64,000 nt of DNA, from the NCBI RefSeq assembly GCF_003018255.1, contig NZ_CP027440.1; one strand, written 5' to 3'. Of this stretch, positions 9,651 to 26,323 are shown one piece after another (the stretch's first letter is position 1; the number at the start of each line of letters is the position of its first letter). Below the pieces are notes generated by a model that was given only the letters and a program-made list of their open reading frames with translations, ran no database searches and was not told where the DNA came from. The DNA comes from Escherichia coli (GTDB lineage: Bacteria > Pseudomonadota > Gammaproteobacteria > Enterobacterales > Enterobacteriaceae). The translations under genes were made by a program, and so were the position numbers.

Positions 9651-10793
9651 TCAAATCTGCTTTTCATACAATCGGTAACGCTTGTACGGCTCCGCCCCAA
9701 TGCGTTCCAGCATGTTATTCATGCCTGTATTGGTTTCGAGGATCCATGACATCTCCAGCGCATCGATCTTCCGACGGGCAAACGGATCGCGTAAGGCTTC
9801 AATCAATAACAGCGCAATTACCGGGCCGATGCGGCTGAACTGATACTCGTCCCGCACGCCCATCAGCGGCACTCGCGCAGTTCGCACACCGCTGACTTTC
9901 AAACGCCACAGCAATTTTGCCCAGCCGAAGGGAAAGAGCGATCCGTTCAGATCGGCAATCGCCTCGTTGATGTTCGGCAAGCCAACAATAAACGCGCAGG
10001 GTGCAGAATCAATCTCAGCGATGTAGATCATATCGTCCGGCACCAGATATTTAAGTTGATCGCCCATGGTCGCGAATTCATGTTCGGTAAACGGCACAAA
10101 TCCCCAGTTGTGCTGCCAGCCAGAATTGAAAATCTCACGCAGGATCTGCATCTCTTCGGCAAACCGCTGGCGATTGATGCAGCGAATGGTCACTTTTTTG
10201 CGCACCTGATCCATCAGTTTTTTTAGCGCCGGAGAGAACGTGAGATCGGTTCGCTGCATCCACCACGCCAGTAAATCAATGCCTTTGTGATAACCCAGTT
10301 GTTCAATATGCGCGGCATACCACGGTTTGCCGTGTGGCATCATCGCACAGGGCGGAGTGTCAAAACCTTCAATCAGTAATCCGCTTTCCTGATTGATATT
10401 CAGGCTGAAAGGCCCGCTGATCTTATTTGCACCTTGTGACTTTAACCACGCTTCCGCTGCGCCAAACAACGCGGCAAAAACCTGCGGATCATCAATGGCA
10501 TCAATCATTCCGTAATGACCGGTATCTTCACCGTAACGCTCACGGTGCAAGGTATCGATTTGCGCGGTAATACGCCCAACTATCTGCCCCGCTTTTTTTG
10601 CCACCCACGCCTGCCAGATGATATGGTCCGTCCCCGGATTCTTCGCAGACAAATGCTCGCTGCGTTCAATGAATAAAGGGGGTATCCAGTTTGGATCATC
10701 GGGATAAAGTGATGACGGAAAAGCGATAAATGCCTTAAGGTCATTTTTATTAATTACTTTTTCAATTTTAATCATCAGCAGATCGCATTCCAT
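9651..10793 (-). CDS. yghO: Large GNAT-like acyltransferase (YghO), 380 aa; candidate N-acyltransferase of the adjacent lipid module
   Basis: Full-length ORF convergent with glcC and divergent from the acyl-AMP ligase operon; position matches yghO in K-12; GNAT-like assignment from sequence recognition only. Confidence 0.7.
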   Translation of the reverse strand: MECDLLMIKIEKVINKNDLKAFIAFPSSLYPDDPNWIPPLFIERSEHLSAKNPGTDHIIWQAWVAKKAGQIVGRITAQIDTLHRERYGEDTGHYGMIDAIDDPQVFAALFGAAEAWLKSQGANKISGPFSLNINQESGLLIEGFDTPPCAMMPHGKPWYAAHIEQLGYHKGIDLLAWWMQRTDLTFSPALKKLMDQVRKKVTIRCINRQRFAEEMQILREIFNSGWQHNWGFVPFTEHEFATMGDQLKYLVPDDMIYIAEIDSAPCAFIVGLPNINEAIADLNGSLFPFGWAKLLWRLKVSGVRTARVPLMGVRDEYQFSRIGPVIALLLIEALRDPFARRKIDALEMSWILETNTGMNNMLERIGAEPYKRYRLYEKQI

Positions 10794-11164
10794 ATCTCTG
10801 TGGATAACAAATAATTAACGGTGAAAAACAGGTTGCAACAGCAACGAACGGCATCTTAATAATCAACCCAATGAATACAAACAAAGAATAAATAGTATTT
10901 ATTAATGATTACGATAAGGTCAGAGACTACACAGAAGCGCCACAATGCCTCTTGTCGATTTAAGGCGACCGGACAAGGCTCCTTCTTAATATATTCATAA
11001 ATTAAATATCATTCACAATAAAAACAAAAAAACTCAAACATATTATTTAAATCAATGTTCATTTTCACACCGATGAAAATACTATCTCATTTATCTTTTA
11101 TGCCTATATAATCCACCGCATTATTGTCATTTTATTTTGGATATCCAATTTTTTCGTGGTGTAT

Positions 11165-12889
11165 ATGTCTAATAAAATCTTTACGCATTCCCTACCTATG
11201 CGCTATGCCGATTTTCCAACGCTGGTTGATGCTTTGGACTACGCCGCTCTGAGTAGCGCCGGAATGAATTTTTATGACAGACGTTGCCAACTTGAAGATC
11301 AACTGGAATATCAGACGTTAAAAGCGCGTTCCGAAGCTGGTGCGAAAAGGTTGTTATCGCTGAACCTGAAAAAAGGCGATCGCGTGGCGCTGATTGCCGA
11401 AACGAGTAGCGGGTTTGTAGAGGCTTTTTTTGCCTGCCAGTATGCCGGCTTAGTCGCCGTCCCGTTGGCGATTCCAATGGGCGTCGGTCAGCGGGATTCC
11501 TGGAGCGCCAAACTGCAGGGTTTACTGGCAAGTTGCCAGCCCGCAGCCATTATCACTGGTGATGAGTGGTTGCCACTGGTCAATGCCGCGACGCATAACA
11601 ACAACCCCGAATTACATGTTTTAAGCCACGCCTGGTTTAAGGCATTACCGGAAGCCGATGTTGCGCTCCAGCGTCCAGTTCCAAACGATATCGCCTACCT
11701 CCAGTACACCTCCGGCAGCACCCGTTTTCCCCGTGGCGTCATTATCACCCATCACGAAGTGATGGCTAATCTACGTGCTATAAGCCACGATGGCATTAAA
11801 TTACGCCCTGGCGACCGCTGCGTCTCCTGGCTGCCTTTCTACCATGATATGGGACTGGTCGGCTTTCTCCTGACCCCCGTCGCCACGCAGCTTTCAGTAG
11901 ATTATTTGCGCACTCAGGATTTTGCCATGCGTCCTCTGCAATGGCTTAAATTGATCAGTAAAAATCGCGGCACCGTTTCCGTTGCACCGCCGTTTGGCTA
12001 TGAATTGTGCCAGCGCCGCGTGAATGAAAAAGATCTCGCTGAACTGGATCTTTCCTGCTGGCGCGTCGCTGGTATTGGAGCAGAACCGATCTCCGCAGAA
12101 CAACTCCATCAATTCGCTGAATGTTTTCGTCAGGTTAACTTTGACGATAAAACTTTCATGCCGTGCTACGGACTGGCAGAAAATGCGCTGGCTGTCAGCT
12201 TCTCTGATGAAGCCTGCGGGGTTGTGGTTAACGAAGTGGATCGCGACATCCTCGAATACCAGGGTAAAGCCGTCGCGCCGGGTGCTGAAACACGCGCCGT
12301 ATCGACTTTCGTCAACTGCGGTAAAGCGTTGCCGGAACATGGCATTGAAATCCGCAATGAAGCAGATATACCTGTCGCGGAACGTGTGGTAGGCCATATT
12401 TGCATCTCCGGCCCCAGCCTGATGAGCGGGTACTTTGGCGACCAGGTTTCGCAAGACGAGATTGCCGCGACGGGCTGGTTAGACACCGGCGACCTTGGTT
12501 ATCTGCTGGACGGTTATCTGTATGTCACCGGACGCATTAAAGATCTGATTATTATTCGTGGCCGTAATATCTGGCCGCAGGATATTGAATACATTGCGGA
12601 ACAGGAACCGGAAATTCATTCTGGCGATGCGATTGCTTTTGTTACCGCCCAGGAAAAAATCATTTTGCAGATCCAGTGTCGGATCAGCGACGAAGAACGT
12701 CGCGGGCAGCTTATCCACGCGCTGGCAGCTCGGATCCAAAGCGAATTTGGCGTTACCGCGGATATCGATCTGTTGCCGCCCCACAGTATTCCCCGAACAT
12801 CCTCCGGCAAGCCTGCCCGTGCGGAAGCGAAAAAACGTTATCAGAAGGCTTATGCTGCCAGTCTTCATGTGCAGGAATCCCTGGCATGA
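11165..12889 (+). CDS. Adenylate-forming fatty acyl-AMP ligase / acyl-ACP synthetase-like enzyme, about 574 aa
   Basis: AMP-binding signature (YTSGSTRFPRGV), size typical of acyl-AMP ligases; start uncertain (track GTG at 11156, first ATG at 11165); stop overlaps next gene start (ATGA). Confidence 0.8.
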   Translation: MSNKIFTHSLPMRYADFPTLVDALDYAALSSAGMNFYDRRCQLEDQLEYQTLKARSEAGAKRLLSLNLKKGDRVALIAETSSGFVEAFFACQYAGLVAVPLAIPMGVGQRDSWSAKLQGLLASCQPAAIITGDEWLPLVNAATHNNNPELHVLSHAWFKALPEADVALQRPVPNDIAYLQYTSGSTRFPRGVIITHHEVMANLRAISHDGIKLRPGDRCVSWLPFYHDMGLVGFLLTPVATQLSVDYLRTQDFAMRPLQWLKLISKNRGTVSVAPPFGYELCQRRVNEKDLAELDLSCWRVAGIGAEPISAEQLHQFAECFRQVNFDDKTFMPCYGLAENALAVSFSDEACGVVVNEVDRDILEYQGKAVAPGAETRAVSTFVNCGKALPEHGIEIRNEADIPVAERVVGHICISGPSLMSGYFGDQVSQDEIAATGWLDTGDLGYLLDGYLYVTGRIKDLIIIRGRNIWPQDIEYIAEQEPEIHSGDAIAFVTAQEKIILQIQCRISDEERRGQLIHALAARIQSEFGVTADIDLLPPHSIPRTSSGKPARAEAKKRYQKAYAASLHVQESLA

Positions 12890-13800
12890 ATCAAACTGTC
12901 GCGGTGACGGGCGCTACCGGGTTTATCGGTAAATATATTATTGATAACCTGCTCGCCCGCGGCTTTCACGTTCGCGCATTAACGCGTACTGCCCGCGCTC
13001 ACGTCAATGATAATCTCATCTGGGTGCGCGGTTCGCTGGAAGATACACATTCGCTTAGCGAACTGGTTGCCGGAGCCAGCGCGGTGGTCCATTGCGCCGG
13101 ACAAGTGCGCGGACACAAAGAAGAGATTTTTACCCGCTGTAACGTTGACGGCAGCCTGCGCCTGATGCAAGCGGCAAAAGAGAGCGGCTTTTGCCAACGT
13201 TTTCTGTTTATCTCTTCGCTGGCGGCGCGCCATCCCGAACTCTCCTGGTACGCAAATTCCAAACACGTCGCCGAACAACGACTGATCGCAATGGCTGACG
13301 AAATTACGCTGGGCATTTTTCGCCCGACAGCCGTGTATGGTCCCGGCGATAAAGAGTTAAAACCGCTGTTTGACTGGATGCTGCGCGGCCTGCTGCCACG
13401 ACTTGGTGCGCCAGATACACAACTCTCTTTCCTGCACGTCACCGATTTTGCGCAAGCAGTGGGTCAGTGGTTAAACGCCGAAACTGTACAGACGCAAACC
13501 TATGAATTATGCGATGGCGTCGCTGGCGGCTATGACTGGCAACGCGTACGACAGCTTGCCGCCGAAGCCCGTTGTGGTTCTGTGCGGATGGTTGGCATTC
13601 CTCTGCCGCTACTCACCTGCCTTGCGGATATCAGTACTGCGTTGAGTCGCCTGGCAGGTAAAGAACCTATGCTGACCCGCTCGAAAATTCGTGAATTAAC
13701 CCACGCCGACTGGTCGGCAAATAATAACCGTATTTCTGAAGATATTAATTGGTTTCCCGGGATTAGCCTGGAACACGCATTACGCAACGGGCTATTTTGA
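12886..13800 (+). CDS. NAD(P)-dependent epimerase/dehydratase-family reductase, 304 aa
   Basis: N-terminal Rossmann motif VTGATGFIGKYI; start at ATG 12886 overlapping upstream stop (ATGA); track ORF from 12676 is an out-of-operon extension. Confidence 0.8.
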   Translation: MNQTVAVTGATGFIGKYIIDNLLARGFHVRALTRTARAHVNDNLIWVRGSLEDTHSLSELVAGASAVVHCAGQVRGHKEEIFTRCNVDGSLRLMQAAKESGFCQRFLFISSLAARHPELSWYANSKHVAEQRLIAMADEITLGIFRPTAVYGPGDKELKPLFDWMLRGLLPRLGAPDTQLSFLHVTDFAQAVGQWLNAETVQTQTYELCDGVAGGYDWQRVRQLAAEARCGSVRMVGIPLPLLTCLADISTALSRLAGKEPMLTRSKIRELTHADWSANNNRISEDINWFPGISLEHALRNGLF

Positions 13801-13831
13801 TTGTCTTGTTTAAAGGTGTGTTAACGTTTCT

Positions 13832-14080
13832 ATGGTAAATCGTGAAATAGTAATGGATTACATCCTTTCCTGTTTACAGGATTTGGTCGAAAACGGTGTG
13901 GAAATTAAGCCCGACAGCGATCTCGTCAACGATCTTGGCCTGGAGTCGATCAAAGTGATGGATCTCTTAATGATGCTGGAAGACAGATTCGATATTTCCA
14001 TTCCTATTAATATTCTGCTGGATGTCAAAACCCCTGCGCAATTAATGGAAACTCTACTTCCATGGCTGGAGAATAAATAA
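13832..14080 (+). CDS. Dedicated acyl carrier protein, 82 aa
   Basis: Small acidic protein with phosphopantetheine-attachment-like motif DLGLESIKVMDL; stop overlaps next start (TAATG). Confidence 0.75.
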   Translation: MVNREIVMDYILSCLQDLVENGVEIKPDSDLVNDLGLESIKVMDLLMMLEDRFDISIPINILLDVKTPAQLMETLLPWLENK

Positions 14081-15252
14081 TGGGGCTATACGATAAATAT
14101 GCGCGCCTTGCTGGCGAGCGCCTGCAATTTAGTGACAACGGGTTAACACCATTTGGCACCTGTATTGATGAAGTGTATTCCGCCACCGAAGGCCGGATCG
14201 GCAATAAAAAAGTGATTCTGGCCGGGACCAATAATTATCTCGGTTTAACCTTTAATCATGATGCTATCCGCGAAGGTCAGGCAGCGTTAGCGGCCCAAGG
14301 CACTGGCACCACCGGTTCTCGTATGGCAAACGGCAGTTATGCGCCGCATCTGGCGTTAGAGAAAGAGATTGCCGAGTTTTTCAATCGCCCTACCGCTATC
14401 GTTTTTTCAACCGGTTATACCGCTAATTTAGGTGTCATCAGCGCACTTGCCGACCATAACGCCGTGGTGTTACTGGATGCCGACAGCCACGCCAGTATTT
14501 ATGACGCCTGTTCTCTCGGCGGCGCAGAGATTATTCGTTTCCGCCATAATGACGTCAACGATCTGGAACGGCGCATGGTCCGCCTCGGTGAACGGGCGAA
14601 AGAGGCGATTATTATCGTTGAAGGCATCTACAGTATGCTCGGTGACGTTGCGCCGCTGGCAGAAATTGTTGATATCAAACGTCGTCTCGGTGGTTATTTG
14701 ATTGTCGATGAAGCACATTCGTTTGGCGTGTTAGGCGCAACAGGCCGCGGACTGGTTGAAGCCGTTGGCGTTGAAGACGACGTGGATATTATCGTCGGCA
14801 CCTTCAGTAAAAGTTTGGCTTCCATTGGTGGTTTTGCCGTGGGTTCAGAAGCGATGGAAGTGCTGCGCTACGGCAGCCGCCCGTATATTTTTACCGCCTC
14901 TCCTTCTCCGTCCTGCATTGCGACCGTGCGCTCGTCGTTAAGAACCATTTCCACACAACCAGAGCTGCGGCAAAAACTGATGGATAACGCCAACAATCTG
15001 TATGACGGTCTGCAAAAACTGGGTTATGAGTTAAGTTCACATATTAGCCCGGTAGTGCCAGTAATAATCGGTTCGAAAGAGGAAGGTTTACGCATCTGGC
15101 GCGAGCTTATTTCGCTGGGCGTTTATGTGAATCTTATCCTGCCACCTGCCGCGCCTGCAGGCATCACGCTGCTGCGCTGTAGCGTAAACGCTGCCCACAG
15201 TCGTGAGCAAATCGATGCCATCATTCAGGCATTTGCTACTCTGAAGCAGTAA
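14080..15252 (+). CDS. PLP-dependent alpha-oxoamine synthase, serine-palmitoyltransferase-like, 390 aa
   Basis: Class-II aminotransferase fold with PLP-lysine motif GTFSKSLASIGG; distinct from BioF and Kbl; translationally coupled to the ACP gene. Confidence 0.8.
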   Translation: MGLYDKYARLAGERLQFSDNGLTPFGTCIDEVYSATEGRIGNKKVILAGTNNYLGLTFNHDAIREGQAALAAQGTGTTGSRMANGSYAPHLALEKEIAEFFNRPTAIVFSTGYTANLGVISALADHNAVVLLDADSHASIYDACSLGGAEIIRFRHNDVNDLERRMVRLGERAKEAIIIVEGIYSMLGDVAPLAEIVDIKRRLGGYLIVDEAHSFGVLGATGRGLVEAVGVEDDVDIIVGTFSKSLASIGGFAVGSEAMEVLRYGSRPYIFTASPSPSCIATVRSSLRTISTQPELRQKLMDNANNLYDGLQKLGYELSSHISPVVPVIIGSKEEGLRIWRELISLGVYVNLILPPAAPAGITLLRCSVNAAHSREQIDAIIQAFATLKQ

Positions 15253-15257
15253 TGTGA

Positions 15258-15292
15258 GCCCGCTGTGGTGTTGCGCCACGGCGGGTTTAATG
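15258..15292. terminator. Convergent hairpin (cccgctgtgg...ccacggcggg) with T-rich tail between the synthase gene and the LptG-like gene
   Basis: About 10-bp stem read from sequence, followed by tttaatg. Confidence 0.4.
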
Positions 15293-16366
15293 TTGTCTGT
15301 CATACCAATACACCAGGCTCAACGCCACCAGCACAAACGCTACCGGTAAACCGAGCGCGGTAACAGGTGCGCTCAACGCAAATAACAATCCCAGATTGAC
15401 CATGATTTGATAGCTGATCCAGGTGAGTAAGCCAACGATGACGCCTACAGCGAGACGGCTACCCATCCCAGGCGAACGCGGGGCGCTAAAGGTAAACGGC
15501 ACAGCCAGCAAAATCATCGCCAGGGTCAAGATGGGTTGTCCCAGTTTTTCCCACAGTGCAAGGCGGTATTCGCTGCTGGGTTGCCCGGTTTCCTGCAAAT
15601 AATGGATGTAATGATTAAGTTGACGGACAGAAAAAGTATTTCCCGGCATCGATAACTCTTCAAGATTCATACTGGTGAAGGCCGATTGCCAGGGAAGATT
15701 ATCAGATGTTTCCTGCGTTTCTTTGCCATTCAGCCATTTTTTATGATTCACACCATGCAGGATCCACGTTTTGTCGTCTTCAATGGTAGCACTGCGCGCA
15801 TAAATGTAGGATTCGAGCGAGAGATCATCGCGGTAATGAAATATCTCCACGTCCACCGGCTGGCCCTGCTCGTTCAGCGATTTCACCGTCACAAATTCAT
15901 TACCACGCCTGGCCCACAGCATATTGCCGGTAATGTCATCGTCCTCCCCCAACGCAGTGGCAGTCGATTTGATTTGCAGCGCCTGTTGCTGCAATGGCGA
16001 CGCCACCCACTCATCTATCGCGCCTAATGAAACAGTCCACAATATCCCGGCAACCAGCGCCACCAGTGCAATACGGAAGATAGAAAACCCCGTGCTGCGA
16101 ATGGCGGTAAGCTCACTGTTTTTCGATAACTGCCCCAGGCCGACAATCCCTCCCAATAAGGCGATAAACGGCGAAAGTTCGACCAGTGTGCGCGGTAAGG
16201 TCATCAGCACCACCAGCACCGCCTGAGTCCAGCGATAACCACCCGGGCTGACATCATCCAGTTCGTTAATCAGGTTGAAGGTGGTAAAAAGCGGCAGCAA
16301 TAGCCCTGCGGCGGCGGCAAAACCGAGAAAGAGATGACGGATTAAATAGCGACTGAAAACATTCAT
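15287..16366 (-). CDS. LptG/LptF-family (YjgP/YjgQ) permease paralog, about 359 aa
   Basis: N-terminus MNVFSRYLIRHLF typical of LptF/G permeases; trimmed to ATG at 16366 overlapping upstream stop (ATGA). Confidence 0.75.
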   Translation of the reverse strand: MNVFSRYLIRHLFLGFAAAAGLLLPLFTTFNLINELDDVSPGGYRWTQAVLVVLMTLPRTLVELSPFIALLGGIVGLGQLSKNSELTAIRSTGFSIFRIALVALVAGILWTVSLGAIDEWVASPLQQQALQIKSTATALGEDDDITGNMLWARRGNEFVTVKSLNEQGQPVDVEIFHYRDDLSLESYIYARSATIEDDKTWILHGVNHKKWLNGKETQETSDNLPWQSAFTSMNLEELSMPGNTFSVRQLNHYIHYLQETGQPSSEYRLALWEKLGQPILTLAMILLAVPFTFSAPRSPGMGSRLAVGVIVGLLTWISYQIMVNLGLLFALSAPVTALGLPVAFVLVALSLVYWYDRQH

Positions 16367-17433
16367 CGGGAAAATTTCTGCAGCAAAGAGAAGTCGCGTG
16401 CGACCAACATCAGCAGGCCCATTAGCATGAGTCCGGGTACTAACCACAAACCAGGAATGAGGGGAATCGCGCCGTTAGCCACCAGCGTACGGCAGACGTC
16501 GCCGCCATAAAAAATGGCAACAAACAGCAACGTCAGTGGCAATAACGTTGAAAATCGCCCTTGCCGCGGTTTTACCCGACTTAATGAAATGGCCAGCAGC
16601 GCCATCAACAATGCTGTCAGGCCACGGCTTTGTCGCCATTGCAGTTCGGCATGATCGGCAGGAAAGGCGGAGCGCGCCAGCTCCGTGACCGATTTTGCTT
16701 TGCGTTTGACGTTAGGGCTTTGATCCAGCGGATTCAGATGTAATTGCAGATTACGGTAGATCTGTTCGTTGTCGTCACGCCCCTGATGATCGAGAAGATA
16801 GGCGGTCCCGTTATGCAACATAACGGTCGGTTTCTCAGGTGATGGGTCAACCACATCAACCGAACGGGCGCGGAAAATGCGGGTTCGATTAGCAGTAGAA
16901 GTATAAATCAGCGCATCAGTCAGGCGATTATTATCCTGATCAACCGTCTGCGAAAGGATCATTCGTCCGTTATCGTTAGTGTTAAATTTCTTTGCCCGCA
17001 ACTGGCGAACATCCAGCTCCGACTGTGACTGTTGCTCCAGTTGATAAATCTGCGCATAAGCCCACGGACGACCATACATCGACAGAAGGGTGACAAAAAT
17101 ACTTAGCGGTATCGCCAGATAAAGAACGGCTTTGTACAAGCGTCCCGGACTGCCCCCCGCCGCAGAGATAGCGGTAATTTCCGAGTCGGTATACATCTGC
17201 CCTAGCGTCACGCCAACTGACACATACAGTCCAACAGGTAACAACATCTCCAGTGCAATCAGCACTTTGTAGAAAACGATATCCAGCACAACATCAAGAG
17301 CTAATGTCCCATTTGCCGCTTCGGTCAGATAACGCTGTGCGGAGTAGCTGGCGAAAATAAAGATCAGAAAACCGACGATAATCAGCACCAGACGGCGCGT
17401 ACCACGCATGATGTAGTGTTCAACCAGCTTCAT
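16363..17433 (-). CDS. LptF/LptG-family (YjgP/YjgQ) permease paralog, 356 aa
   Basis: Polytopic membrane protein with LptF/G-like N-terminus; operon partner of 15287-16366. Confidence 0.75.
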   Translation of the reverse strand: MKLVEHYIMRGTRRLVLIIVGFLIFIFASYSAQRYLTEAANGTLALDVVLDIVFYKVLIALEMLLPVGLYVSVGVTLGQMYTDSEITAISAAGGSPGRLYKAVLYLAIPLSIFVTLLSMYGRPWAYAQIYQLEQQSQSELDVRQLRAKKFNTNDNGRMILSQTVDQDNNRLTDALIYTSTANRTRIFRARSVDVVDPSPEKPTVMLHNGTAYLLDHQGRDDNEQIYRNLQLHLNPLDQSPNVKRKAKSVTELARSAFPADHAELQWRQSRGLTALLMALLAISLSRVKPRQGRFSTLLPLTLLFVAIFYGGDVCRTLVANGAIPLIPGLWLVPGLMLMGLLMLVARDFSLLQKFSR

Positions 17434-17462
17434 CTCACTAACGCCCTCAATCCTTTGAATTT

Positions 17463-18026
17463 TTATTCATTGATCAGCTTCTGCGCCAGCGCAATGACAT
17501 GATCTACCTCTTCCGGCGTCAGGCTGCCGTCCTTTGCCCACTGAATTTGCCCGGTTTTATTCAGCACCAGAATGGTTGAACTCTGCTCCTGCAAGTGCCA
17601 GGCAACGCGTCCCTGTCCATTGCCGTCAATAACGAATTGCGCCCATGGATAGCGGCGTTTATTTTTTTCGATTTTGCCAACGACAAAATAGCCGGTACCA
17701 AAGATGGCATCATCAGTGTTCACAATGGTGGTGGGCTGAAAACGATCCTGCGGAAAGTTTGCCGCTTCAACTGCTTTAATTAACAGTGAGTTCTTTTTCT
17801 TCGCCGACTTACGCCCGGCGATATACTGAATAATGCGAACTTTTCCCGCCAATTGGGTGCTGTTCCACTTTTGGTAGTGAATTTCGTCGTCGCTATTCCG
17901 AAGCAGCTCGCCGCCTTCCTGGATATAAACGGGGGTAACCGTTTTGCCAGTGACGAAATTGTGTGCCTGCACACCCGGGGCTAAGAGCATGATAATCAGC
18001 GCAATAATCAAACGAGATGACATCAT
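17463..18026 (-). CDS. Secreted/periplasmic protein with cleavable signal peptide, possibly YtfJ-like, 187 aa
   Basis: N-terminal signal peptide (...LLAPGVQA/HN); family assignment tentative. Confidence 0.55.
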   Translation of the reverse strand: MMSSRLIIALIIMLLAPGVQAHNFVTGKTVTPVYIQEGGELLRNSDDEIHYQKWNSTQLAGKVRIIQYIAGRKSAKKKNSLLIKAVEAANFPQDRFQPTTIVNTDDAIFGTGYFVVGKIEKNKRRYPWAQFVIDGNGQGRVAWHLQEQSSTILVLNKTGQIQWAKDGSLTPEEVDHVIALAQKLINE

Positions 18027-18034
18027 TGCTCCGG

Positions 18035-18859
18035 TTATAGCGGAAAACGCGAAATCAGCAGTTCTAAGCGCTGGCGAATATCGCTATCCAGCGCCATCGG
18101 TGCATCATACGACTGGCGGTTTTCCATATCATCCGCCACCATGTCGTCGTGTTTATCCCCCATCAGGCCATTAATGGCGGCGAGGAAGCGGGAAATCTGT
18201 AACGCTTCTTTATTTTCAGGATCAAGCGATCTTAGGGTGTCGTAATAAGAAACCTGCTGGCTGATGATTTTTCGCACATCATGAAATTCCCTGCCGGTTA
18301 GTCGCGGTTTGGCAATTATCTCTTTCAGGGTATGCATTTGCTTTTGCCGATAGGCAATAAAACCGCTTACGCTTTCTAACTGGCTATGGCGTAATGAATA
18401 GTTCACCAACGACCAGACCGGAGAGCTTAAATAAACCCGTAACAGGTTGCCGTAATACGACACAATATTTTTCTTACCGTTACGAAAGCCGTCCTGAAAA
18501 CGCCCCAAAAAAACGGTCGTTTTGCCGAATAAAAATCCGGCCTGATGCTTCTTTAAATACAGCCGTTGCGCAAAACGCAGGTGCTTGTAGCGCGCTCGCA
18601 TGTATTTAAATTGTTTGCGCTCATCAGCAGTCAGCTCATCGCCTTTGGCCTGTTTGCATATTAAACGCAGTAACTCCTGGCGATTGACGCCATTGAGCCA
18701 GAATTGCAGGCATAACGCGTAATTATCATGGATGATTTCGGTGGTACAACTTAGTGCGATAGTCGGCGGCAAACTGACCTGTGCATCAACGACATCATCT
18801 TCTTCAATCGCAACAAATAGACGCTCGCTCGCCTCTAGCGGGAAATATTTTCTCATCAT
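18035..18859 (-). CDS. Hypothetical protein, 274 aa
   Basis: Full-length ORF in operon; start overlaps the stop of yghQ by 1 nt; no domain recognised. Confidence 0.6.
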   Translation of the reverse strand: MMRKYFPLEASERLFVAIEEDDVVDAQVSLPPTIALSCTTEIIHDNYALCLQFWLNGVNRQELLRLICKQAKGDELTADERKQFKYMRARYKHLRFAQRLYLKKHQAGFLFGKTTVFLGRFQDGFRNGKKNIVSYYGNLLRVYLSSPVWSLVNYSLRHSQLESVSGFIAYRQKQMHTLKEIIAKPRLTGREFHDVRKIISQQVSYYDTLRSLDPENKEALQISRFLAAINGLMGDKHDDMVADDMENRQSYDAPMALDSDIRQRLELLISRFPL

Positions 18860-20208
18860 CAGGATTTCTCTCCGGCTGCGTTATAAAGCAAGGAATGGCG
18901 CTGAAAAAATGCCTTTAAGGTCGGAATTAGCGAAAGCACCACATCCAGACATTGACCACCGAAATAAGCAAACGCTGCTCCCAGCACGCCAAACAGATGA
19001 CAGAACATGAACAGCAATACGATGTAGCCGATTGAGGCGATGGTTTGCGCCACGAGAAAAGCGCGCTGTTTTCCCGCCATCAATAGCAATGACTCCTGAG
19101 GGAAGCCCAGCATCGAGATCACAATTGCGCCCAGCATCACCTGAATCAGGTCATACGCTTCGAGATACTTAACGCCAAACACCAGCGAAATGAGCGGCTT
19201 GCCGACAATCAACACCGCGAGCGCCACCAGAATACCGATTCCGCCCGCCAGTAAACCTGACTTCACGCCTAACAACCACGGTCTGGTGGTACGCGGATCT
19301 AAACGCATCACCTCTGGGTAAAAACTTTTGCCCAGTAAACCCGCTGGCGTTCCGGCGGCGTCGAAGAATGTCATGGCGATTTTAAATAACCCGGCGGCAG
19401 CGGGTCCTAACACGATCCCCACCAACACTGTGCTGCACGAATTACGCGCCGACCAGATGGAATGGGCAATGTTGGTTGACCAGACAAAACTCCACGCGCC
19501 TTTGATGTGTCGGGCAGACTCAAACAGATTCAATTTGAACGCGTTATGGATATTTCTGCGGCGTAATTCACGTGCGGCAAACCACCAGTACATGGTGCCG
19601 CCAACAAGATTCGAGGCGTACCAGGCAATAACAAAACCCGCAAAACCAAAGTCAAAATACCAGGCAACGACGCTCCCCGCTGCGCGCAGAAAAGGTTTCG
19701 TCGCTTGCTGTACAGCAATTAGATCGAAGCGATCTACCGCACGCAGAATGCCGGTCGGCGTGGAGGAAGCCATTGAAGGAATGAGCGTGCAATACAGCGC
19801 TGCCAGCCAAAAGCTTTGGTCATCCAGACCTAATGAATGGGAAAGAAAAGGGAGTAAGGCAATGCCGCCGACAATCGCCACCGCGCCGCTGACGATATCC
19901 AGCGAGAAGGAAAATGAGACGACATTGCGGAATTGCTGCGGATTATTGTTGGTTAATGCTGGTGTTCCGTACTGAACCACCAGCTGCCATGTCTGAAACT
20001 TAATAAAATCGCTGATCGACTTGGCGTACGATTGTACAATCACCAGTACGCCAAACATGGCGGGCGTCATCCCTTTACCGGCACACGAGAGCGCCAACAG
20101 ACCCAGCAAAGCGCTCACGACATTACTGGAGCCTAACCAGGCGCTATTGCGAATAATGGTGCGAAACGCGCCATCTGCAAACCAATGTTTGATGTTAAAA
20201 CCCGCCAA
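18859..20208 (-). CDS. yghQ: MOP-superfamily flippase/exporter, full-length 449 aa
   Basis: Polytopic membrane ORF at the K-12 yghQ position; K-12 YghQ recalled as 355 aa, suggesting a 3'-truncated K-12 copy. Confidence 0.75.
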   Translation of the reverse strand: MAGFNIKHWFADGAFRTIIRNSAWLGSSNVVSALLGLLALSCAGKGMTPAMFGVLVIVQSYAKSISDFIKFQTWQLVVQYGTPALTNNNPQQFRNVVSFSFSLDIVSGAVAIVGGIALLPFLSHSLGLDDQSFWLAALYCTLIPSMASSTPTGILRAVDRFDLIAVQQATKPFLRAAGSVVAWYFDFGFAGFVIAWYASNLVGGTMYWWFAARELRRRNIHNAFKLNLFESARHIKGAWSFVWSTNIAHSIWSARNSCSTVLVGIVLGPAAAGLFKIAMTFFDAAGTPAGLLGKSFYPEVMRLDPRTTRPWLLGVKSGLLAGGIGILVALAVLIVGKPLISLVFGVKYLEAYDLIQVMLGAIVISMLGFPQESLLLMAGKQRAFLVAQTIASIGYIVLLFMFCHLFGVLGAAFAYFGGQCLDVVLSLIPTLKAFFQRHSLLYNAAGEKS

Positions 20209-20253
20209 TTCAGCCTGACCTTATCGTTGATAGTAAAAAGTATCCCGCCAGCC

Positions 20254-21012
20254 TTAAGTTAAACTTCGGCGGTCAGAAACGATGGCAACCAGAGAAACCG
20301 CCTTCTGTGCCTGTTCCAGCACTTCGCTGTAGGGCGCTCTGGAATCAATCTCAAGAATTTTTGTGCCGTTATAGCCAATCGTCGACATGACGCCGATTTT
20401 GTCCTGCAGCTCGGCATAGTCATGGTCAGGCTTGCGGGAGATGGCAGTATCAATATCAATCCCCAAACGAATGATTAATTCAGGACGGTATTGCGCCATT
20501 TGTTGGTATAAACGCCGTTCGCGCTGCGCCAGAAACATGCTGATTTTCCCGGTCGCACGTTCGACGCCGATCCCCGGTCCGTCATAATAAAAGCCCGAAA
20601 TTTCAGCCTGCGGGAAGCGATCGCTGACCACCAGAACGCCACTTTGCGCCAGTCGCTGAACCTTGCGTAGATTCGCCATTCTTCGCAGCGAGAAGCAGTA
20701 CATAATCACCGCCGCCCATAGCGCTGGAGATTTGGTTTTCATGCTTTGGGTTTTCGAGGATTTGGCCGCCAGTCGCCGTTCGAGCCAGACGCCAACCAAC
20801 GGCAATCGTTTGATTTTGTCGCCGTCTTCGCCCGAGAGCAGCCCCAGATAGCGCCGCTCGGTTTGCCAGTGTTGTTGCAGCGATTTCACCAGGTCGGTGG
20901 TCAGTGTGGATTTACCGGTGCCATCACACCCGACCACCGCAATCAGCCCCGGAATGTAGTTGGGCTGCGGCGCGGTTGTACTATTAACAGTTTGTGTTTG
21001 TAGTGCGTCCAT
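20254..21012 (-). CDS. yghR: P-loop kinase, thymidylate/deoxynucleoside-kinase-like, 252 aa
   Basis: Walker A GCDGTGKST and downstream SDRFPQ motif; length matches K-12 YghR. Confidence 0.85.
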   Translation of the reverse strand: MDALQTQTVNSTTAPQPNYIPGLIAVVGCDGTGKSTLTTDLVKSLQQHWQTERRYLGLLSGEDGDKIKRLPLVGVWLERRLAAKSSKTQSMKTKSPALWAAVIMYCFSLRRMANLRKVQRLAQSGVLVVSDRFPQAEISGFYYDGPGIGVERATGKISMFLAQRERRLYQQMAQYRPELIIRLGIDIDTAISRKPDHDYAELQDKIGVMSTIGYNGTKILEIDSRAPYSEVLEQAQKAVSLVAIVSDRRSLT

Positions 21013-21043
21013 TCGTTAAATCATCCCCTATCCATTTTGGTGA

Positions 21044-21757
21044 TCAGGAAAGCGCGGCGTGAATTGCGCGTAGTGACGCTTGCAGAATTTCATCGGCGGG
21101 TTGCCGACCATCCAGTTCAAGGATCTTTGCACCATTAAATGTCAGTTGCGGCGTAACGGCGATTTTTTCCTGTAACGCCGCCAGTTGGTGGTCAGGTTTA
21201 CGCGCAAACGCGGTTTGTTCATCAATGCCAAGACGAATCAACAATACGGGCAAATAAGACGCCATCCATTGGTACAGCTTCAGCTCGCGCTGCCTTAACA
21301 TTTTTATCCAACCGTTACCGCCCGTGGTTTTTGCCAATTGCGGGCCATCAAAGCGAAAACCCGGCACTTCAACCTGCGGGTAGCGGTCGGTGATGAGCAG
21401 ATAGCCTTGCTGGCTTTTACACAACATTTTGCGAAACTTGTACGCCCGCCAGCAGGAAAGCAGATAGATAACCAGCGCAGTAATATTGCCAGGTGGTGTG
21501 GAGGGCTTTTCGTGCACATGTGCCGCTTTACTTCGCAGATAACGCCCAAAAGGTGCGCCAATAACAGGGAGCTGTGAAATCCATTCGCCAATTCGCCCGG
21601 ACGATTGCCCGAGATAAATGTGTTCTGTTGGCATTGTTGCTGCCAGTTCATTTACCAGGCTTGCCGTGAGGGTCGATTTACCTGAACCATCACATCCTAC
21701 AATGGCAATAACACGCACTGGCGTGGAATTAATTATTGACATATTACGTTGATTCAC
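21044..21757 (-). CDS. yghS: P-loop kinase paralog, 237 aa
   Basis: Walker A GCDGSGKST and TDRYPQ motif; paralog of yghR; length matches K-12. Confidence 0.85.
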   Translation of the reverse strand: MNQRNMSIINSTPVRVIAIVGCDGSGKSTLTASLVNELAATMPTEHIYLGQSSGRIGEWISQLPVIGAPFGRYLRSKAAHVHEKPSTPPGNITALVIYLLSCWRAYKFRKMLCKSQQGYLLITDRYPQVEVPGFRFDGPQLAKTTGGNGWIKMLRQRELKLYQWMASYLPVLLIRLGIDEQTAFARKPDHQLAALQEKIAVTPQLTFNGAKILELDGRQPADEILQASLRAIHAALS

Positions 21758-21931
21758 GAAAAACCCGGCAGCAAATAATGTATTGAATATTACGTGGTCC
21801 GTGCTCAGAATATCCGTTCAACCTTATTGTGACAATGGTTAATTGTGACATTGACCTGAATTACGCTTTCATCAAAAACATATTAACCAAATAAATATTT
21901 TGGATGGATATTTAAATTTAAGGATATATTC

Positions 21932-22624
21932 ATGCAGTCAATAATACCTCCATTAATTGCCGTTATTGGTAGCGATGGTTCAGGCAAGTCAACGGTGTGT
22001 GAACATCTTATTACCGTTGTCGAAAAATATGGTGCTGCCGAAAGAGTTCATTTAGGAAAACAGGCCGGAAATGTCGGTCGTGCAGTGACAAAATTACCGT
22101 TGATGGGAAAGTCTCTGCACAAGACTATTGAAAAAAATGAAGTGAAAACGGCAAAAAAATTGCCGGGTCCGGTTCCGGCCCTGGTGATCACCGCTTTCGT
22201 CGCCCGCCGACTGTTACGCTTTCGTCATATGCTCGCCTGTCGTCGTCGCGGGCTGATTGTCTTAACCGATCGTTATCCTCAGGACCAAATTCCTGGCGCT
22301 TACGATGGTACGGTGTTCCCACCTAACGTTGAAGGCGGCCGGTTTGTCTCATGGCTGGCAAGCCAGGAACGTAAAGCATTTCACTGGATGGCGAGCCATA
22401 AGCCTGATCTGGTCATCAAACTCAATGTTGACCTTGAAGTTGCCTGCGCGCGTAAACCCGACCATAAACGGGAATCGCTGGCGAGGAAGATTGCCATAAC
22501 GCCACAGTTAACCTTTGGCGGTGCACAACTGGTTGATATCGATGCTAATCAGCCACTGGAAAAGGTGCTGGTTGATGCAGAAAAAGCGATTACGGATTTT
22601 ATGACCGCGCGTGGTTATCACTAG
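21932..22624 (+). CDS. yghT: P-loop kinase paralog, 230 aa
   Basis: Walker [10 protein letters not shown] and TDRYPQ motif; divergent from yghS; length matches K-12. Confidence 0.85.
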
Positions 22625-22636
22625 TCAAAAATGGAA

Positions 22637-22668
22637 ATGCCCGATCGCCAGGACCGGGCATTTTCAGG
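22637..22668. terminator. Bidirectional hairpin terminator between yghT and pitB
   Basis: Stem atgcccg...cgggcat with T-runs on both strands. Confidence 0.5.
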
Positions 22669-22672
22669 AAGG

Positions 22673-24172
22673 TTAAATCAACTGCAATGCTATCCAGTAC
22701 AACCCACCAGAAAGAAAAATCGCCGCCGGTAAAGTAAATACCCACGCCATCAGGATGCTGGTTACCGTTTTACGCTGTAACCCACCGCCGTCCACCACCA
22801 TCGTTCCTGCTACGGCAGATGAGAGTACGTGTGTTGTGGAGACGGGCATCCCAATATAACTGGCAAGGCCGATAGACACTGCCGCCGTCATTTGTGCCGC
22901 CATGCCTTGCGCATACGTCATGCCGCGCTTACCAATCTTCTCACCGATGGTCATCGCTACACGACGCCAGCCAATCATGGTGCCAATGCCGAGCGCCAGT
23001 GCTACCGCCATGATGATCCATACCGGTGCGTACTCAATGGTGCTTAACATATCGCTGCGCAGTTTTTTCAGCAGGTTCTGGTCTTCTTTACTGACGCCTG
23101 GCAGTTTCGCCAGCTTCGCGGAGGTATCAGAGATGCACAGCATAATGCGGCGCAGCTGGCTGCGCTGACTCACGCTTAACGGCTCGTAACTTTCCATATT
23201 GCCTGGCAGCATCGTTTTAACGCGCGCAATCGCATCAAAGGTATTTGCCGGATGACAGTGAAACTCCGTTACTTGCGTGCCATCAGTCGATGCCGCAGGC
23301 AATGGAGGTTCCATCGCAATCAACTTCTGCGGCAGTTCAGGATGCTGTTGCAGGTAGTGTTCGAAGTTGGTGACGGCATCGCGGGTACGGGTAATTTCAT
23401 AGCCGGACGCGTTCATATTGACGACGAAGCCAGCAGGGGCAATCCCCACCAGTACCAGCATCACCAGGCCGATCCCTTTCTGCCCGTCGTTAGCGCCGTG
23501 CGAAAACGCCACGCCCGCAGCGGAAACAATCAGCGCAATACGCGTCCAGAATGGTGGCTTACGTTTGCCTTTTTTCTTTTTGCGATCTTCCGGAATGCGG
23601 TGAATACGGTCACGCTTTTTCGTCCCGCTCCAGAAACGGCGCAGCAGGAAAATCAGACCACCCGCAATGACCAGGCCGACGATAGGGGAAACAATCAGCG
23701 AGGAGAAAATTTTGGTCACTTCACGCAGGTTTAACGCATCCATCACCGATGAGCCGGTTAACAGCGCGTTGGTTAAACCGATGCCGATAATCGCACCAAT
23801 CAAGGTGTGCGAACTGGAGGCCGGTAAACCAAAGAACCACGTTCCCAGGTTCCAGATAATCGCGGCCAGCAGCATGGAAAAGACCATCGCCAGGCCGTGA
23901 GTTGACCCCATATTCAGCAACAAATCGGTTGGTAACATATGGACAATGGCATAGGCAACGCTAAGTCCGCCTAGCAATACGCCAAAAAAGTTAAAAAATG
24001 CCGCCATCACCACGGCAAGCTGTGGCTGCATGGCTCGAGTATAAATAACGGTTGCCACCGCATTCGCCGTGTCATGAAAACCATTGATTGCTTCGTAGAA
24101 CAACACAAATGCCAGAGCAAGTAATAACAAAAGCCCTGTGTATATATCAAGGCCAACAAATAAATTTAGCAT
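22673..24172 (-). CDS. pitB: Low-affinity inorganic phosphate transporter, 499 aa
   Basis: PiT-family membrane protein; length and position match K-12 pitB. Confidence 0.9.
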
Positions 24173-24413
24173 ATATTAGATTACGCCATTTTGAATTTAC
24201 GAACGGAGGCATTATCAGTGACTTTCACGGCGTGGGCAAAGTGAAATATCATTTTTTAACGATAAAAAGCGTGTTATTTCTTGTGTATCAGACAATAAGC
24301 CTTCATTCAAAACCTTTAAAAATAATCAAAACACAGGTATTCCACTTGTTAATATATTCATATATGAAATGAATAAATATTGAAATATATAAATATTGAA
24401 TATTTTGATTAAT

Positions 24414-24448
24414 CCCCGTACTGATTATTCTTCATAATCAGTACGGGG
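24414..24448 (-). terminator. Perfect 15-bp palindrome hairpin downstream of gss
   Basis: ccccgtactgattat / ataatcagtacgggg read from sequence, 16 nt beyond the gss stop in an AT-rich spacer. Confidence 0.5.
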
Positions 24449-24463
24449 TTGCTACAACATGTA

Positions 24464-26323
24464 TTACTCTTTCACCACAATTAACGGTTCAATATCACTC
24501 TCTTTTTTGATGACCAGTGATTCATCACCGCGCAAACACGTCCCACCGTAGTTGCCGCCAACGGTGAAAGTACATACCTGAATGTATTTACCGTCCACTT
24601 TCGGCAAACACCACAGTTGCTGATAGATGTTTTTCTGCTCGGCAAATTTACCGCTGGTTTTGTCCAGCACCTCTTCATGATGGCTGACGAGGTCGATGTT
24701 ACTGCCACAGCGACCGGCGATCGGTTTAACGGCATAACCGGTTTTCACCAGCTCATCATTCACGGTGAAGTCAGTATCCAACAGATAACGATGGTGCGGG
24801 AACAGAGACCAGAGGATCGGCAGAATCGCTTTGTTACCGGGGATCACCGTCCATAGCGGCTCAAAAACCAACACTTCCGGGCGTAACAGAACGTCTATCA
24901 GACGAACTTCATTTTGTGGATGCCCGGTACGGATCGGCACTGCGGCAAATTCACGGTCGCTCACTTCGCGGATTTGATCAAATGCCGTTTCCCACGCCCA
25001 GGTTTTCCATACGCAGTTAACCAGTCGCCCTTCCCCATCAATCAGTTGCCCGGCAGCATCCCAGCCCAGTTCATCCAACCCACGCAAGATACGCGTTTCA
25101 AAGCCCGCCTGGTGCAGCGCCTGCTCCATAAACTGCGCGTGATAGTTTTCCTCGATATCTTTGTCCTGCATGATATGGACAAACGGACGTGCACGACTGT
25201 GTTTCCACGCGCCAGCCAGTTCGTTAATCAGTCCTTCCGCAGGATTGAAGCCGTTGCCTTTATAGCCCTGCTCCGCCCAACGTTCGAGGATCAAGCCCGC
25301 TTCGGTATGACAGGAGGCAGAATCGGCGTTGTATTCGTAGACTTTCAGGCCACGTTCATCCATGCAGAAATCCATACGACCAGTGATCATATGATGACGG
25401 CGACGCTGCCAGGAGAGACGCAAACGTGGCCAGAGGATTTTCGGAATGTCAAACAGCGCCAGCAGGTTGTCATCTTTCAGCACCTTGTCGGTGGCGTGAA
25501 GATACATCAGGTGCAGCTCGTTGGTGGCTTTAATCAGCTCCTGCTCGGCACTCTCGGTAATGGTGTAGTAATGATACGGATCCTGATTGATCACCTGGCC
25601 GTTGGCCTGTACATAGGCGTTTTGCAGCGGATCTTTTTCATCCAGCCATTTACCGTCAAACTGGCCTTTGTTTTCCAGACGCGCCCCGCTGATTTTCAGC
25701 AGTTCGCCTGCAATTTCCGGCTGTGGCAAGCTGTATTCGGTATCTTCCGTCTGGATCATCCAGCCCAGAATAGTGGTGTCATCGAAGGTGTCTTTCAGGG
25801 TATAGCCGCCGTTTTCGACCACCATCTCCAGCTCGCGTGTCCACTGTTGCCCTTGCGGCAACGGGGTATGAATCACGTTCTGTTCCGCAATACGGACTTT
25901 GTTGCCATGCAATTGGGTAATGATGGCGACATGGCCAGTGTCTTTAAATTCACCGCCTTTATCCCAGATAAGAAGCGCCCCCGCTACCGGTGCACGCGGC
26001 GAACCGTTAGGAAATGCCTGCAATGGCAGGATGTTGTCATTGACCACTTCACGCAGGAAGCGCAGTGAGAAAATCTCCCATGCCATACCCACGTCAGTGA
26101 AGACTACACCGTAGTTCAGAAAGAGAAAACGGCGAGCAAATTCAACGCATTGCCATTTGTGGCCCATATATTCATCGTCGATATAGCTACGGAATACGGC
26201 GTCATCTTCGTATTCCTGCGGATCGAGAGAACTGTAATCTGAAGAGTAGATTGCTACCCCACCTGGGGCGTAGCCCAATAATGTCCCGAACGGGGCATCC
26301 TGGCTGGTCGTTCCTTTGCTCAT
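24464..26323 (-). CDS. gss: Bifunctional glutathionylspermidine synthetase/amidase, 619 aa
   Basis: Protein recognised (MSKGTTSQDAPFGTLLGYAPGG...); start taken at second Met of track ORF. Confidence 0.93.
   Translation of the reverse strand: MSKGTTSQDAPFGTLLGYAPGGVAIYSSDYSSLDPQEYEDDAVFRSYIDDEYMGHKWQCVEFARRFLFLNYGVVFTDVGMAWEIFSLRFLREVVNDNILPLQAFPNGSPRAPVAGALLIWDKGGEFKDTGHVAIITQLHGNKVRIAEQNVIHTPLPQGQQWTRELEMVVENGGYTLKDTFDDTTILGWMIQTEDTEYSLPQPEIAGELLKISGARLENKGQFDGKWLDEKDPLQNAYVQANGQVINQDPYHYYTITESAEQELIKATNELHLMYLHATDKVLKDDNLLALFDIPKILWPRLRLSWQRRRHHMITGRMDFCMDERGLKVYEYNADSASCHTEAGLILERWAEQGYKGNGFNPAEGLINELAGAWKHSRARPFVHIMQDKDIEENYHAQFMEQALHQAGFETRILRGLDELGWDAAGQLIDGEGRLVNCVWKTWAWETAFDQIREVSDREFAAVPIRTGHPQNEVRLIDVLLRPEVLVFEPLWTVIPGNKAILPILWSLFPHHRYLLDTDFTVNDELVKTGYAVKPIAGRCGSNIDLVSHHEEVLDKTSGKFAEQKNIYQQLWCLPKVDGKYIQVCTFTVGGNYGGTCLRGDESLVIKKESDIEPLIVVKE

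Follow-up and report, generated by a model that had tools for sequence, protein, structure and literature searches.

Three conserved thymidylate-kinase-like paralogs of Escherichia coli, YghR, YghS and YghT, in a sphingolipid and flippase gene module, and a possible role in building a phosphate-rich head group

The genes yghR, yghS and yghT of Escherichia coli encode three P-loop proteins that resemble thymidylate kinase (TMPK) and lie among genes for ceramide synthesis, lipid flipping and lipid export. We examined them in a stretch of 64,000 nucleotides of E. coli DNA (the window; contig NZ_CP027440.1 of assembly GCF_003018255.1). yghR occupies positions 20254-21012 of the minus strand (252 amino acids, aa) and yghS positions 21044-21757 of the same strand (237 aa, with a GTG start), where it heads a minus-strand operon; yghT is transcribed divergently from the plus strand at 21932-22624 (230 aa). 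These open reading frames agree with the RefSeq annotation of the E. coli chromosome NZ_CP116067, at 100% identity. The initial annotation of the window had described three TMPK-like P-loop paralogs with a Walker A and a DR motif, two co-directional and one divergent, next to a flippase and a lipid-synthesis module. Each part of that description holds for the reading frames, their strands, their translations and their BLASTP comparisons, and the neighboring genes yghQ (18859-20208), aasR, cerR/epi, acpR, spt and yghO are all present.

The translation of YghR contains GCDGTGKST, SDRFPQ and RKPDH, that of YghS contains GCDGSGKST and TDRYPQ, and that of YghT carries TDRYPQ. The three proteins share a P-loop consensus of G[CS]DG[ST]GKST and a DR motif of [ST]DR[FY]PQ, and RKPDH forms a third invariant motif that the initial annotation did not mention. 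Pairwise BLASTP gave 44% identity between YghR and YghS (E = 1e-62), 37% between YghS and YghT (E = 4e-54) and 34% between YghR and YghT (E = 6e-48); judged by these alignments, the paralogy lies far above chance. An AlphaFold2 model of YghS, built from 58 diverse homologs, reached a predicted local distance difference test score (pLDDT) of 91 and a predicted template-modeling score of 0.87, and its best structural matches are TMPKs. The single YghS sequence gave no meaningful match against PDB sequences and a family profile was required; this profile matched the TMPK of Plasmodium falciparum (PfTMPK) with E = 3e-11, aligning the P-loop, the DRY motif and the strand-plus-lid region. The family to which the triad belongs has the TMPK fold with P-loop, DRx motif and lid, and YghR, YghS and YghT form part of a thymidylate-kinase superfamily branch that is still uncharacterised, where they are probably non-redundant.

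The position of this branch relative to true kinases of deoxythymidine monophosphate (dTMP) could be judged from family models and from the alignment. dTMP-kinase models are the best family matches of the triad, though below cutoff: TIGR00041 scores YghR, YghS and YghT at 30.9, 24.8 and 25.5 bits, under its curated cutoff of 83.25, and the Pfam model Thymidylate_kin (PF02223) returns sub-threshold matches only (i-E 0.18-0.29). The FPxR arginine, which holds the dTMP phosphate, is not kept in the family, since the alignment sets YFPNRETGIG of PfTMPK against YLGkgsgnlG and places S, L or Q at the arginine position across the three paralogs. RefSeq names the products of yghS and yghT 'dTMP kinase', which, because of the scores below both cutoffs and the loss of this arginine, we judge from the sequences to be an over-annotation. 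The family also has features of its own: an additional conserved stretch, YLGxGxGxxG...LPxxG, and, following DR[YF], an extended PQxExPGxxDGP loop. Neither Pfam nor NCBIfam has a dedicated model for it, and a search of the protein universe clustered at 50% gave about 2,158 representatives with E < 1e-3. Whereas dTMP kinase, as modeled by TIGR00041 and PF02223, is a single housekeeping gene, the Ygh proteins are three conserved paralogs within a lipid-export operon.

Hydroxyl kinases of this P-loop fold have a carboxylate base after strand 2. In the alignment of the triad family, the end of strand 2 carries an invariant Y/H-L-G and no carboxylate, and the P-loop Asp and the DRx 'clamp' Arg of the TMPK type are retained. 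On these two grounds the conserved residues look more like those of an enzyme with a phosphate acceptor, as in nucleoside monophosphate (NMP) kinases, than of one acting on a lipid hydroxyl. That the triad proteins are real phosphotransferases we consider very likely. They do not resemble the polyphosphate kinase PPK2: no match to PF03976 appeared up to E = 10 in Pfam or, among the best 25 matches listed for YghS, up to E = 1 in NCBIfam, and the structural score of YghS against PPK2 is far weaker than against TMPK.

Conservation was followed in a scan that took one genome per species and yielded 78 loci; hidden Markov model (HMM) and ortholog counts were made over 82 loci. The scanned loci span Enterobacterales, Carnimonas, Rhodanobacter, Luteibacter, many beta-proteobacteria, Acetobacter and Sphingomonadales, and also include deltaproteobacterial/Myxococcales metagenome-assembled genomes (MAGs). 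Three family members are clustered in 58 of the 82 loci by HMM count, and by best-hit assignment 55 of the 82 hold R, S and T orthologs in a single copy each. These one-each loci occur in alpha-, beta- and gamma-proteobacteria and reach from Enterobacterales to Acetobacter, Sphingopyxis and the beta-proteobacteria; because they recur so widely, the triplication is ancient, and all three copies have been retained. In related loci the S and R genes nearly always stand side by side on one strand, and T is in most cases transcribed divergently. The related loci supplied clades of 72 R, 78 S and 67 T sequences, in all of which G-x-D-G-x-G-K-S-T, D-R-x-P-Q, D137, E158 and R-K-P-D-H are kept at about 100% and R125 at 100%; only a handful of positions are clade specific. 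Some natural proteins are fusions, of S with R (P0121) or of T with R (P0122 and P0124), which argues for a physical association of the subunits. Taken together, the ancient and retained triplication, the nearly invariant catalytic motifs and the fusions speak for three active subunits or steps, none of them redundant, that operate physically close to one another. Some loci of Lysobacterales and of deltaproteobacterial/Myxococcales MAGs (L055, L058, L060 and L062) hold a fourth family member, a second copy of the T type.

The operon headed by yghS runs on the minus strand in the order yghS-yghR-yghQ-ybl138-ytfJ-lptF2-lptG2, with gaps of at most 45 nt or overlaps between the genes. yghQ (18859-20208; 449 aa) lies 45 nt downstream of yghR and encodes a full-length MOP/PST-type flippase, although its match to the NCBIfam MOP flippase model is weak. 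The start of ybl138 (18035-18859; 274 aa, annotated 'hypothetical') overlaps the yghQ stop. It is followed by a YtfJ-family protein (17463-18026; 187 aa; TIGR01626, 212 bits) with a signal-peptide-like N-terminus, MMSSRLIIALIIMLLAPGVQA, then by lptF2 (16363-17433), a paralog of the lipopolysaccharide-export permease gene lptF (TIGR04407, 320 bits), and by the lptG paralog lptG2 (15287-16366; TIGR04408, 310 bits), which closes the operon. PGAP labels the two permease genes plain 'lptF' and 'lptG', which looks like over-annotation. A terminator-like hairpin at 15255-15289 ends the run and is common to the convergent ceramide-precursor operon (11165-15252, plus strand), which by RefSeq annotation comprises aasR (11165-12889), cerR/epi (12886-13800), acpR (13832-14080) and spt (14080-15252). 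yghO (9651-10793, minus strand) encodes an N-acyltransferase of the bacterial ceramide-synthase (bCerS) type and is intact here. The AasR, AcpR and Spt proteins of E. coli BL21 have been shown to make 3-oxo-sphinganine, and the BL21 ortholog of yghO, ECD_02850, has been assigned as 'aca'/cerS (PMC9386255). The LptF2/G2 paralogs of Caulobacter have been implicated in sphingolipid transport, with the housekeeping LptB (preprint 10.64898/2026.04.12.717747).

Between yghS and yghT lies a divergent intergenic region of 174 bp (21758-21931) with lower G+C and probable promoters, including a promoter-like site at 21835-21807 on the minus strand that is a consensus match only. On its other side yghT adjoins pitB (22673-24172, minus strand), a gene for a phosphate:H+ symporter, with which it shares a hairpin at 22635-22663. 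We set pitB aside as a clue to phosphate metabolism because it stands next to yghT only in Escherichia and close relatives (Pseudocitrobacter, Hafnia and Citrobacter), so that the adjacency is probably coincidental.

Ybl138 was not annotated by family-model searches at the sequence level. Its structural model is very confident (pLDDT 95), and its Foldseek matches, in Sphingomonas, Acetobacter, Komagataeibacter, Zymomonas, Gluconobacter and Pseudomonas veronii, are named 'CHAD domain-containing protein' at TM-scores of 0.93-0.97. The helical fold and the invariant His, Arg and Lys of the family fit CHAD (PF05235), and by its model Ybl138 is a CHAD-fold protein. Domains of this type bind inorganic polyphosphate (bioRxiv 10.1101/567040), and by analogy Ybl138 is predicted to do so too. 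Such a partner suggests chemistry on pyro- or polyphosphate, a feature absent from the initial annotation, and PPK3, a polyphosphate kinase of archaea, is the sole characterised system that combines several TMPK-like paralogs with a CHAD protein. Two CHAD-like genes are present in Luteibacter (L037 and L038) and in L040.

Neighbor genes were counted in 80 non-redundant loci and, separately, in the 55 loci of at least 18 kb. A MOP flippase accompanies the family in 54 of 80 loci (43 of the 55 long ones), a Ybl138 homolog in 51 (40) and spt in 47 (40); YtfJ is found in 33 (28) and the LptFG paralogs in 31 (26). Homologs of epi/cerR occur in 47 loci at 38-92% identity, and the spt/acpR/aasR/bCerS genes lie within 10 kb in about 73% of the long loci. 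The unit is reduced to S-R-T-YghQ, surrounded by unrelated genes, in Acetobacter (L066), and to S-R-T-YghQ-Ybl138 in Sphingopyxis (L070). S-R-T with Ybl138 and YghQ is a conserved module, and it is attached to ceramide-synthesis genes and to the LptF2/LptG2 exporter. Other partners are lineage-specific gains: a DgkA-like kinase beside bCerS (18 of 80 loci, 17 of 55), an LpxO-like hydroxylase after the R ortholog (19 and 15) and a PAP2-type phosphatase beside the T ortholog (8 and 4). The E. coli locus lacks all three. Examples of such lineage-specific lipid-phosphate genes lie at 2279-2644 of L002, 12404-12730 and 11596-12339 of L004, and 7126-7815 of L063.

A large set of distant relatives of about 500 aa (among them P0165, P0169, P0220 and P0249) carry the kinase domain behind an NTP_transf_5-like N-terminal domain. 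One of them is fused to a MOP flippase, as MOP-NTase-kinase (P0220), and another to a GT4 glycosyltransferase (P0249); in L083 (5721-9482) a distant relative directly follows the flippase gene of a Wzx/Wzy polysaccharide locus. Because distant relatives are fused to flippases or directly follow them, the coupling of kinase and flippase predates the association with sphingolipids. A Wzx/Wzy locus with one of the ~500-aa relatives also holds an ATP-sulfurylase and a sulfotransferase. A CHAD-like HMM had no matches in L083-L088, and Ybl138 was rejected as a counterpart or companion of the NTP_transf_5-like domain. Two further candidate roles for the triad were rejected as well: anti-phage defence, for which PADLOC matches are at the level of the P-loop only (E of at least 2e-4 over 20-50 residues) with none for Ybl138, and an LptB-like ABC ATPase serving LptF2G2, for which triad matches are limited to the P-loop, the Caulobacter LptF2G2 using LptB. 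We consider it likely that the triad is a functional part of the sphingolipid and flippase module.

Within E. coli, the 12-kb stretch is 100% identical to that of strain DETEC-S792 and 95-99% identical to that of most other strains. yghRST were found in 4,604 of 5,426 complete genomes (~85%) and the whole 12-kb ceramide cluster in 4,057 (~75%); 1 of 5,154 matches to the cluster lies on a plasmid rather than a chromosome, and O157:H7 (RIMD 0509939) lacks the entire stretch from aasR to yghT. In K-12 MG1655 (L089, 3129043-3134823), compared with positions 9651-22624 of the window, IS5 lies between yghO and a 3'-truncated yghQ (355 aa) and has replaced aasR, cerR, acpR, spt, lptG2, lptF2, ytfJ and ybl138, with yghRST intact. 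The published K-12 phenotypes, a 2-fold change in the minimum inhibitory concentration of chlorhexidine in a yghQ deletion and a silkworm screen, are uninformative for a truncated locus, and knock-outs in this IS5-truncated remnant say little on the native role of the genes. In K-12, yghS is activated by SlyA and listed in the H-NS regulon (PMC5797941), which fits a silenced locus. G+C falls to 0.43-0.46 at 21000-22500 and 23500-25000, compared with ~0.52 elsewhere; it is 0.46 in the first of these, the yghS/yghT divergent region, and the second is the pitB-gss intergenic region. The low G+C around both is compatible with H-NS binding.

These observations lead us to propose, tentatively and as one real possibility, that YghR, YghS and YghT give a bacterial sphingolipid a phosphate-rich head group and do not serve nucleotide synthesis. 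They are probably a heteromeric, cytoplasmic phosphotransferase dependent on nucleoside triphosphates (NTPs). The association of the triad with the lipid module has good support; that the proteins form a heteromer, which substrate accepts the phosphate and what the product is are inferred. Ceramide made by Spt, bCerS and CerR would first be phosphorylated, perhaps by the DgkA-like kinase of the cluster in many relatives and by the housekeeping DgkA in E. coli. A YghR/S/T hetero-oligomer would then add phosphate onto ceramide-1-phosphate in the manner of an NMP kinase, giving a pyrophosphate, oligophosphate or polyphosphate head group that the CHAD protein Ybl138 would bind. YghQ would flip the anionic lipid, and LptB2F2G2 would carry it on to the outer membrane. 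Flippases of the MOP/PST type usually transport substrates linked to lipid pyrophosphate, DgkA is able to phosphorylate ceramide in vitro, and the substrates of PAP2 enzymes are lipid (pyro)phosphates. This lipid-phosphate scheme is the most coherent one because flippase cargo, DgkA, PAP2 and the binding of polyphosphate by CHAD domains all agree with it. In its full form, a ceramide-anchored pyro-, oligo- or polyphosphate made by a heterotrimer of YghR, YghS and YghT, held by the CHAD protein, flipped by YghQ and delivered by LptB2F2G2 in E. coli and many proteobacteria, the scheme is unlikely.

Several observations weigh against a phosphate-rich sphingolipid head group. About a quarter of the loci have no spt within 10 kb, and the DgkA-like and PAP2 neighbors are restricted to certain lineages and absent from the E. 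coli locus. The parallel with PPK3, though striking, is also imperfect. All three Ygh paralogs retain the DRx arginine that the PPK3 regulatory subunit has lost, and the predicted Ygh acceptor region carries invariant acidic residues (D137, E158 and D189), whereas the catalytic PPK3 subunit (cPPK3) has a basic polyphosphate cleft. The Ygh module holds no PPX or SixA, and, judged by the family profile, the cPPK3 homolog 2plr (E = 7e-6, over the P-loop alone) is at least as distant in sequence as canonical TMPKs. The literature searched reports no sphingolipid made by the E. coli cluster, and searches on yghR/S/T, on yghQ, and on thymidylate kinase or CHAD with sphingolipid returned no functional study.

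Phosphorylation may instead be directed at a small soluble metabolite, or at successive forms of it, the triad producing an activated head-group precursor that another enzyme moves to ceramide. The fold belongs to small-molecule kinases, and the NTP_transf_5-like domain fused to many distant relatives recalls the pairs of kinase and nucleotidyltransferase that make head groups activated with a nucleoside diphosphate; the Caulobacter head group is built from phosphoglycerate activated with cytidine diphosphate (CDP) (PMC13228409). The R, S and T proteins themselves, however, have no NTase-like domain, the conserved module lacks a transferase (no CDP-alcohol transferase and no glycosyltransferase) and the CHAD partner is left without a role, and we regard a soluble acceptor as somewhat unlikely. 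The CHAD protein would have a role if YghRST were a bacterial enzyme of the PPK3 type that interconverts ATP and free polyphosphate, with Ybl138 as its polyphosphate partner and only an indirect link to sphingolipids through a local supply of phosphate or energy. E. coli already has PPK1 and PPX, though, and turnover of polyphosphate in the cytoplasm leaves unexplained why the family is tightly coupled, and fused, to MOP flippases. The window operon was examined together with L063, L066 and L070 and none contains a PPX, SixA or Pst gene, pitB adjoins yghT only among close Escherichia relatives, and the invariant residues near the acceptor site are acidic, not basic; free polyphosphate synthesis is an unlikely function.

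The initial annotation had suggested, by analogy to bacterial ceramide kinase, that the proteins phosphorylate the lipid directly. Of this idea the connection with a lipid module stands by synteny and homology to the ceramide kinase CpgB does not, since CpgB is an enzyme of the LCB5/DAG-kinase fold and carries a GGDG motif (PMC10331486), whereas the triad has the P-loop NMP-kinase fold and no match to DAGK_cat in Pfam. One or more of the three could still be a P-loop analog of CpgB that acts on a ceramide or sphingoid-base hydroxyl: the E. coli cluster lacks a CpgB-type kinase, the genes share one operon with a flippase and Lpt paralogs, and P-loop kinases of the same fold (deoxynucleoside kinases, shikimate kinase and chloramphenicol phosphotransferase) do phosphorylate hydroxyls. 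It is nevertheless quite unlikely, as the alignment puts Y/H-L-G where the strand-2 carboxylate would be and keeps the TMPK-type Asp and Arg, the DgkA-like gene in 18 loci could carry out ceramide phosphorylation, and a single hydroxyl needs no three conserved copies. The constant association with MOP flippases, one fusion included, and the presence of a non-catalytic paralogous subunit in PPK3 would suit NTP-binding regulators or assembly factors of YghQ or of the export machine. We find this improbable, because every catalytic residue is kept at about 100% in the three clades, which is unusual for purely regulatory subunits, because MOP transporters are driven by ion gradients and because LptF2G2 of Caulobacter rely on LptB. 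The initial annotation had also allowed that the proteins may be nucleotide kinases, as the RefSeq names for yghS and yghT hold. dTMP-kinase models and TMPK structures are indeed their nearest matches, but with bit scores of 31, 25 and 26 where the cutoff is 83, Pfam E-values near 0.2, no conserved FPxR arginine, an essential tmk elsewhere in E. coli and synteny with lipid genes, this fallback is highly improbable.

New here are the one-each conservation of R, S and T with their fusions, the constant YghQ and CHAD partners and the parallel with PPK3. The sphingolipid flippase is still to be identified according to the field (PMC11087976), and YghQ is a candidate for it. TMPK-derived paralogs and a CHAD protein, a combination until now known only from polyphosphate metabolism, are linked here to the export of envelope lipids. 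If the proposal is true, ceramide-linked polyphosphate would be an undescribed class of envelope lipid, highly anionic and displayed at the surface; to date there is no description of a sphingolipid from E. coli, though ~75% of complete genomes carry the full ceramide cluster. The labels 'dTMP kinase' and 'lptF/lptG' look like a systematic mis-annotation that has spread across thousands of genomes.

Two known systems offer a comparison. Sulfolobus PPK3, reported in 2026, is a heteromer of two proteins annotated as thymidylate kinases, and its genes (Saci_2019/2020 in S. acidocaldarius) share an operon with a CHAD protein and PPX (PMC12995831). Among the structural matches of YghS, the ortholog of this catalytic subunit from S. 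tokodaii (PDB 2plr/5h70) ranks second. As in PPK3, at least two TMPK-like paralogs are encoded together and apart from the housekeeping tmk, and a CHAD gene lies in the same operon, in this case ybl138, kept in 51 of 80 loci. PPK3 has two paralogs, whereas the Ygh module has three adjacent ones, and the Ygh genes differ in context, standing with a MOP flippase, ceramide synthesis and LptFG paralogs.

The other known system is the anionic sphingolipid pathway of Caulobacter. Both it and the Ygh system attach a head-group and export module, including LptF/LptG paralogs, to spt, acpR, aasR, cerR and bCerS, and both share an expected outcome, an anionic sphingolipid in the outer membrane. Caulobacter uses the ceramide kinase CpgB, the enzymes CpgC, CpgD and CpgA with a nucleotide-activated phosphoglycerate, and LptF2/G2/C2. 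The E. coli-type cluster has none of these Cpg enzymes and instead holds the R/S/T triad, the CHAD protein, YghQ and YtfJ. Because it lacks every described Cpg enzyme, the Ygh module, a head-group and flipping module found by comparison, looks like an alternative to the Cpg pathway of Caulobacter.

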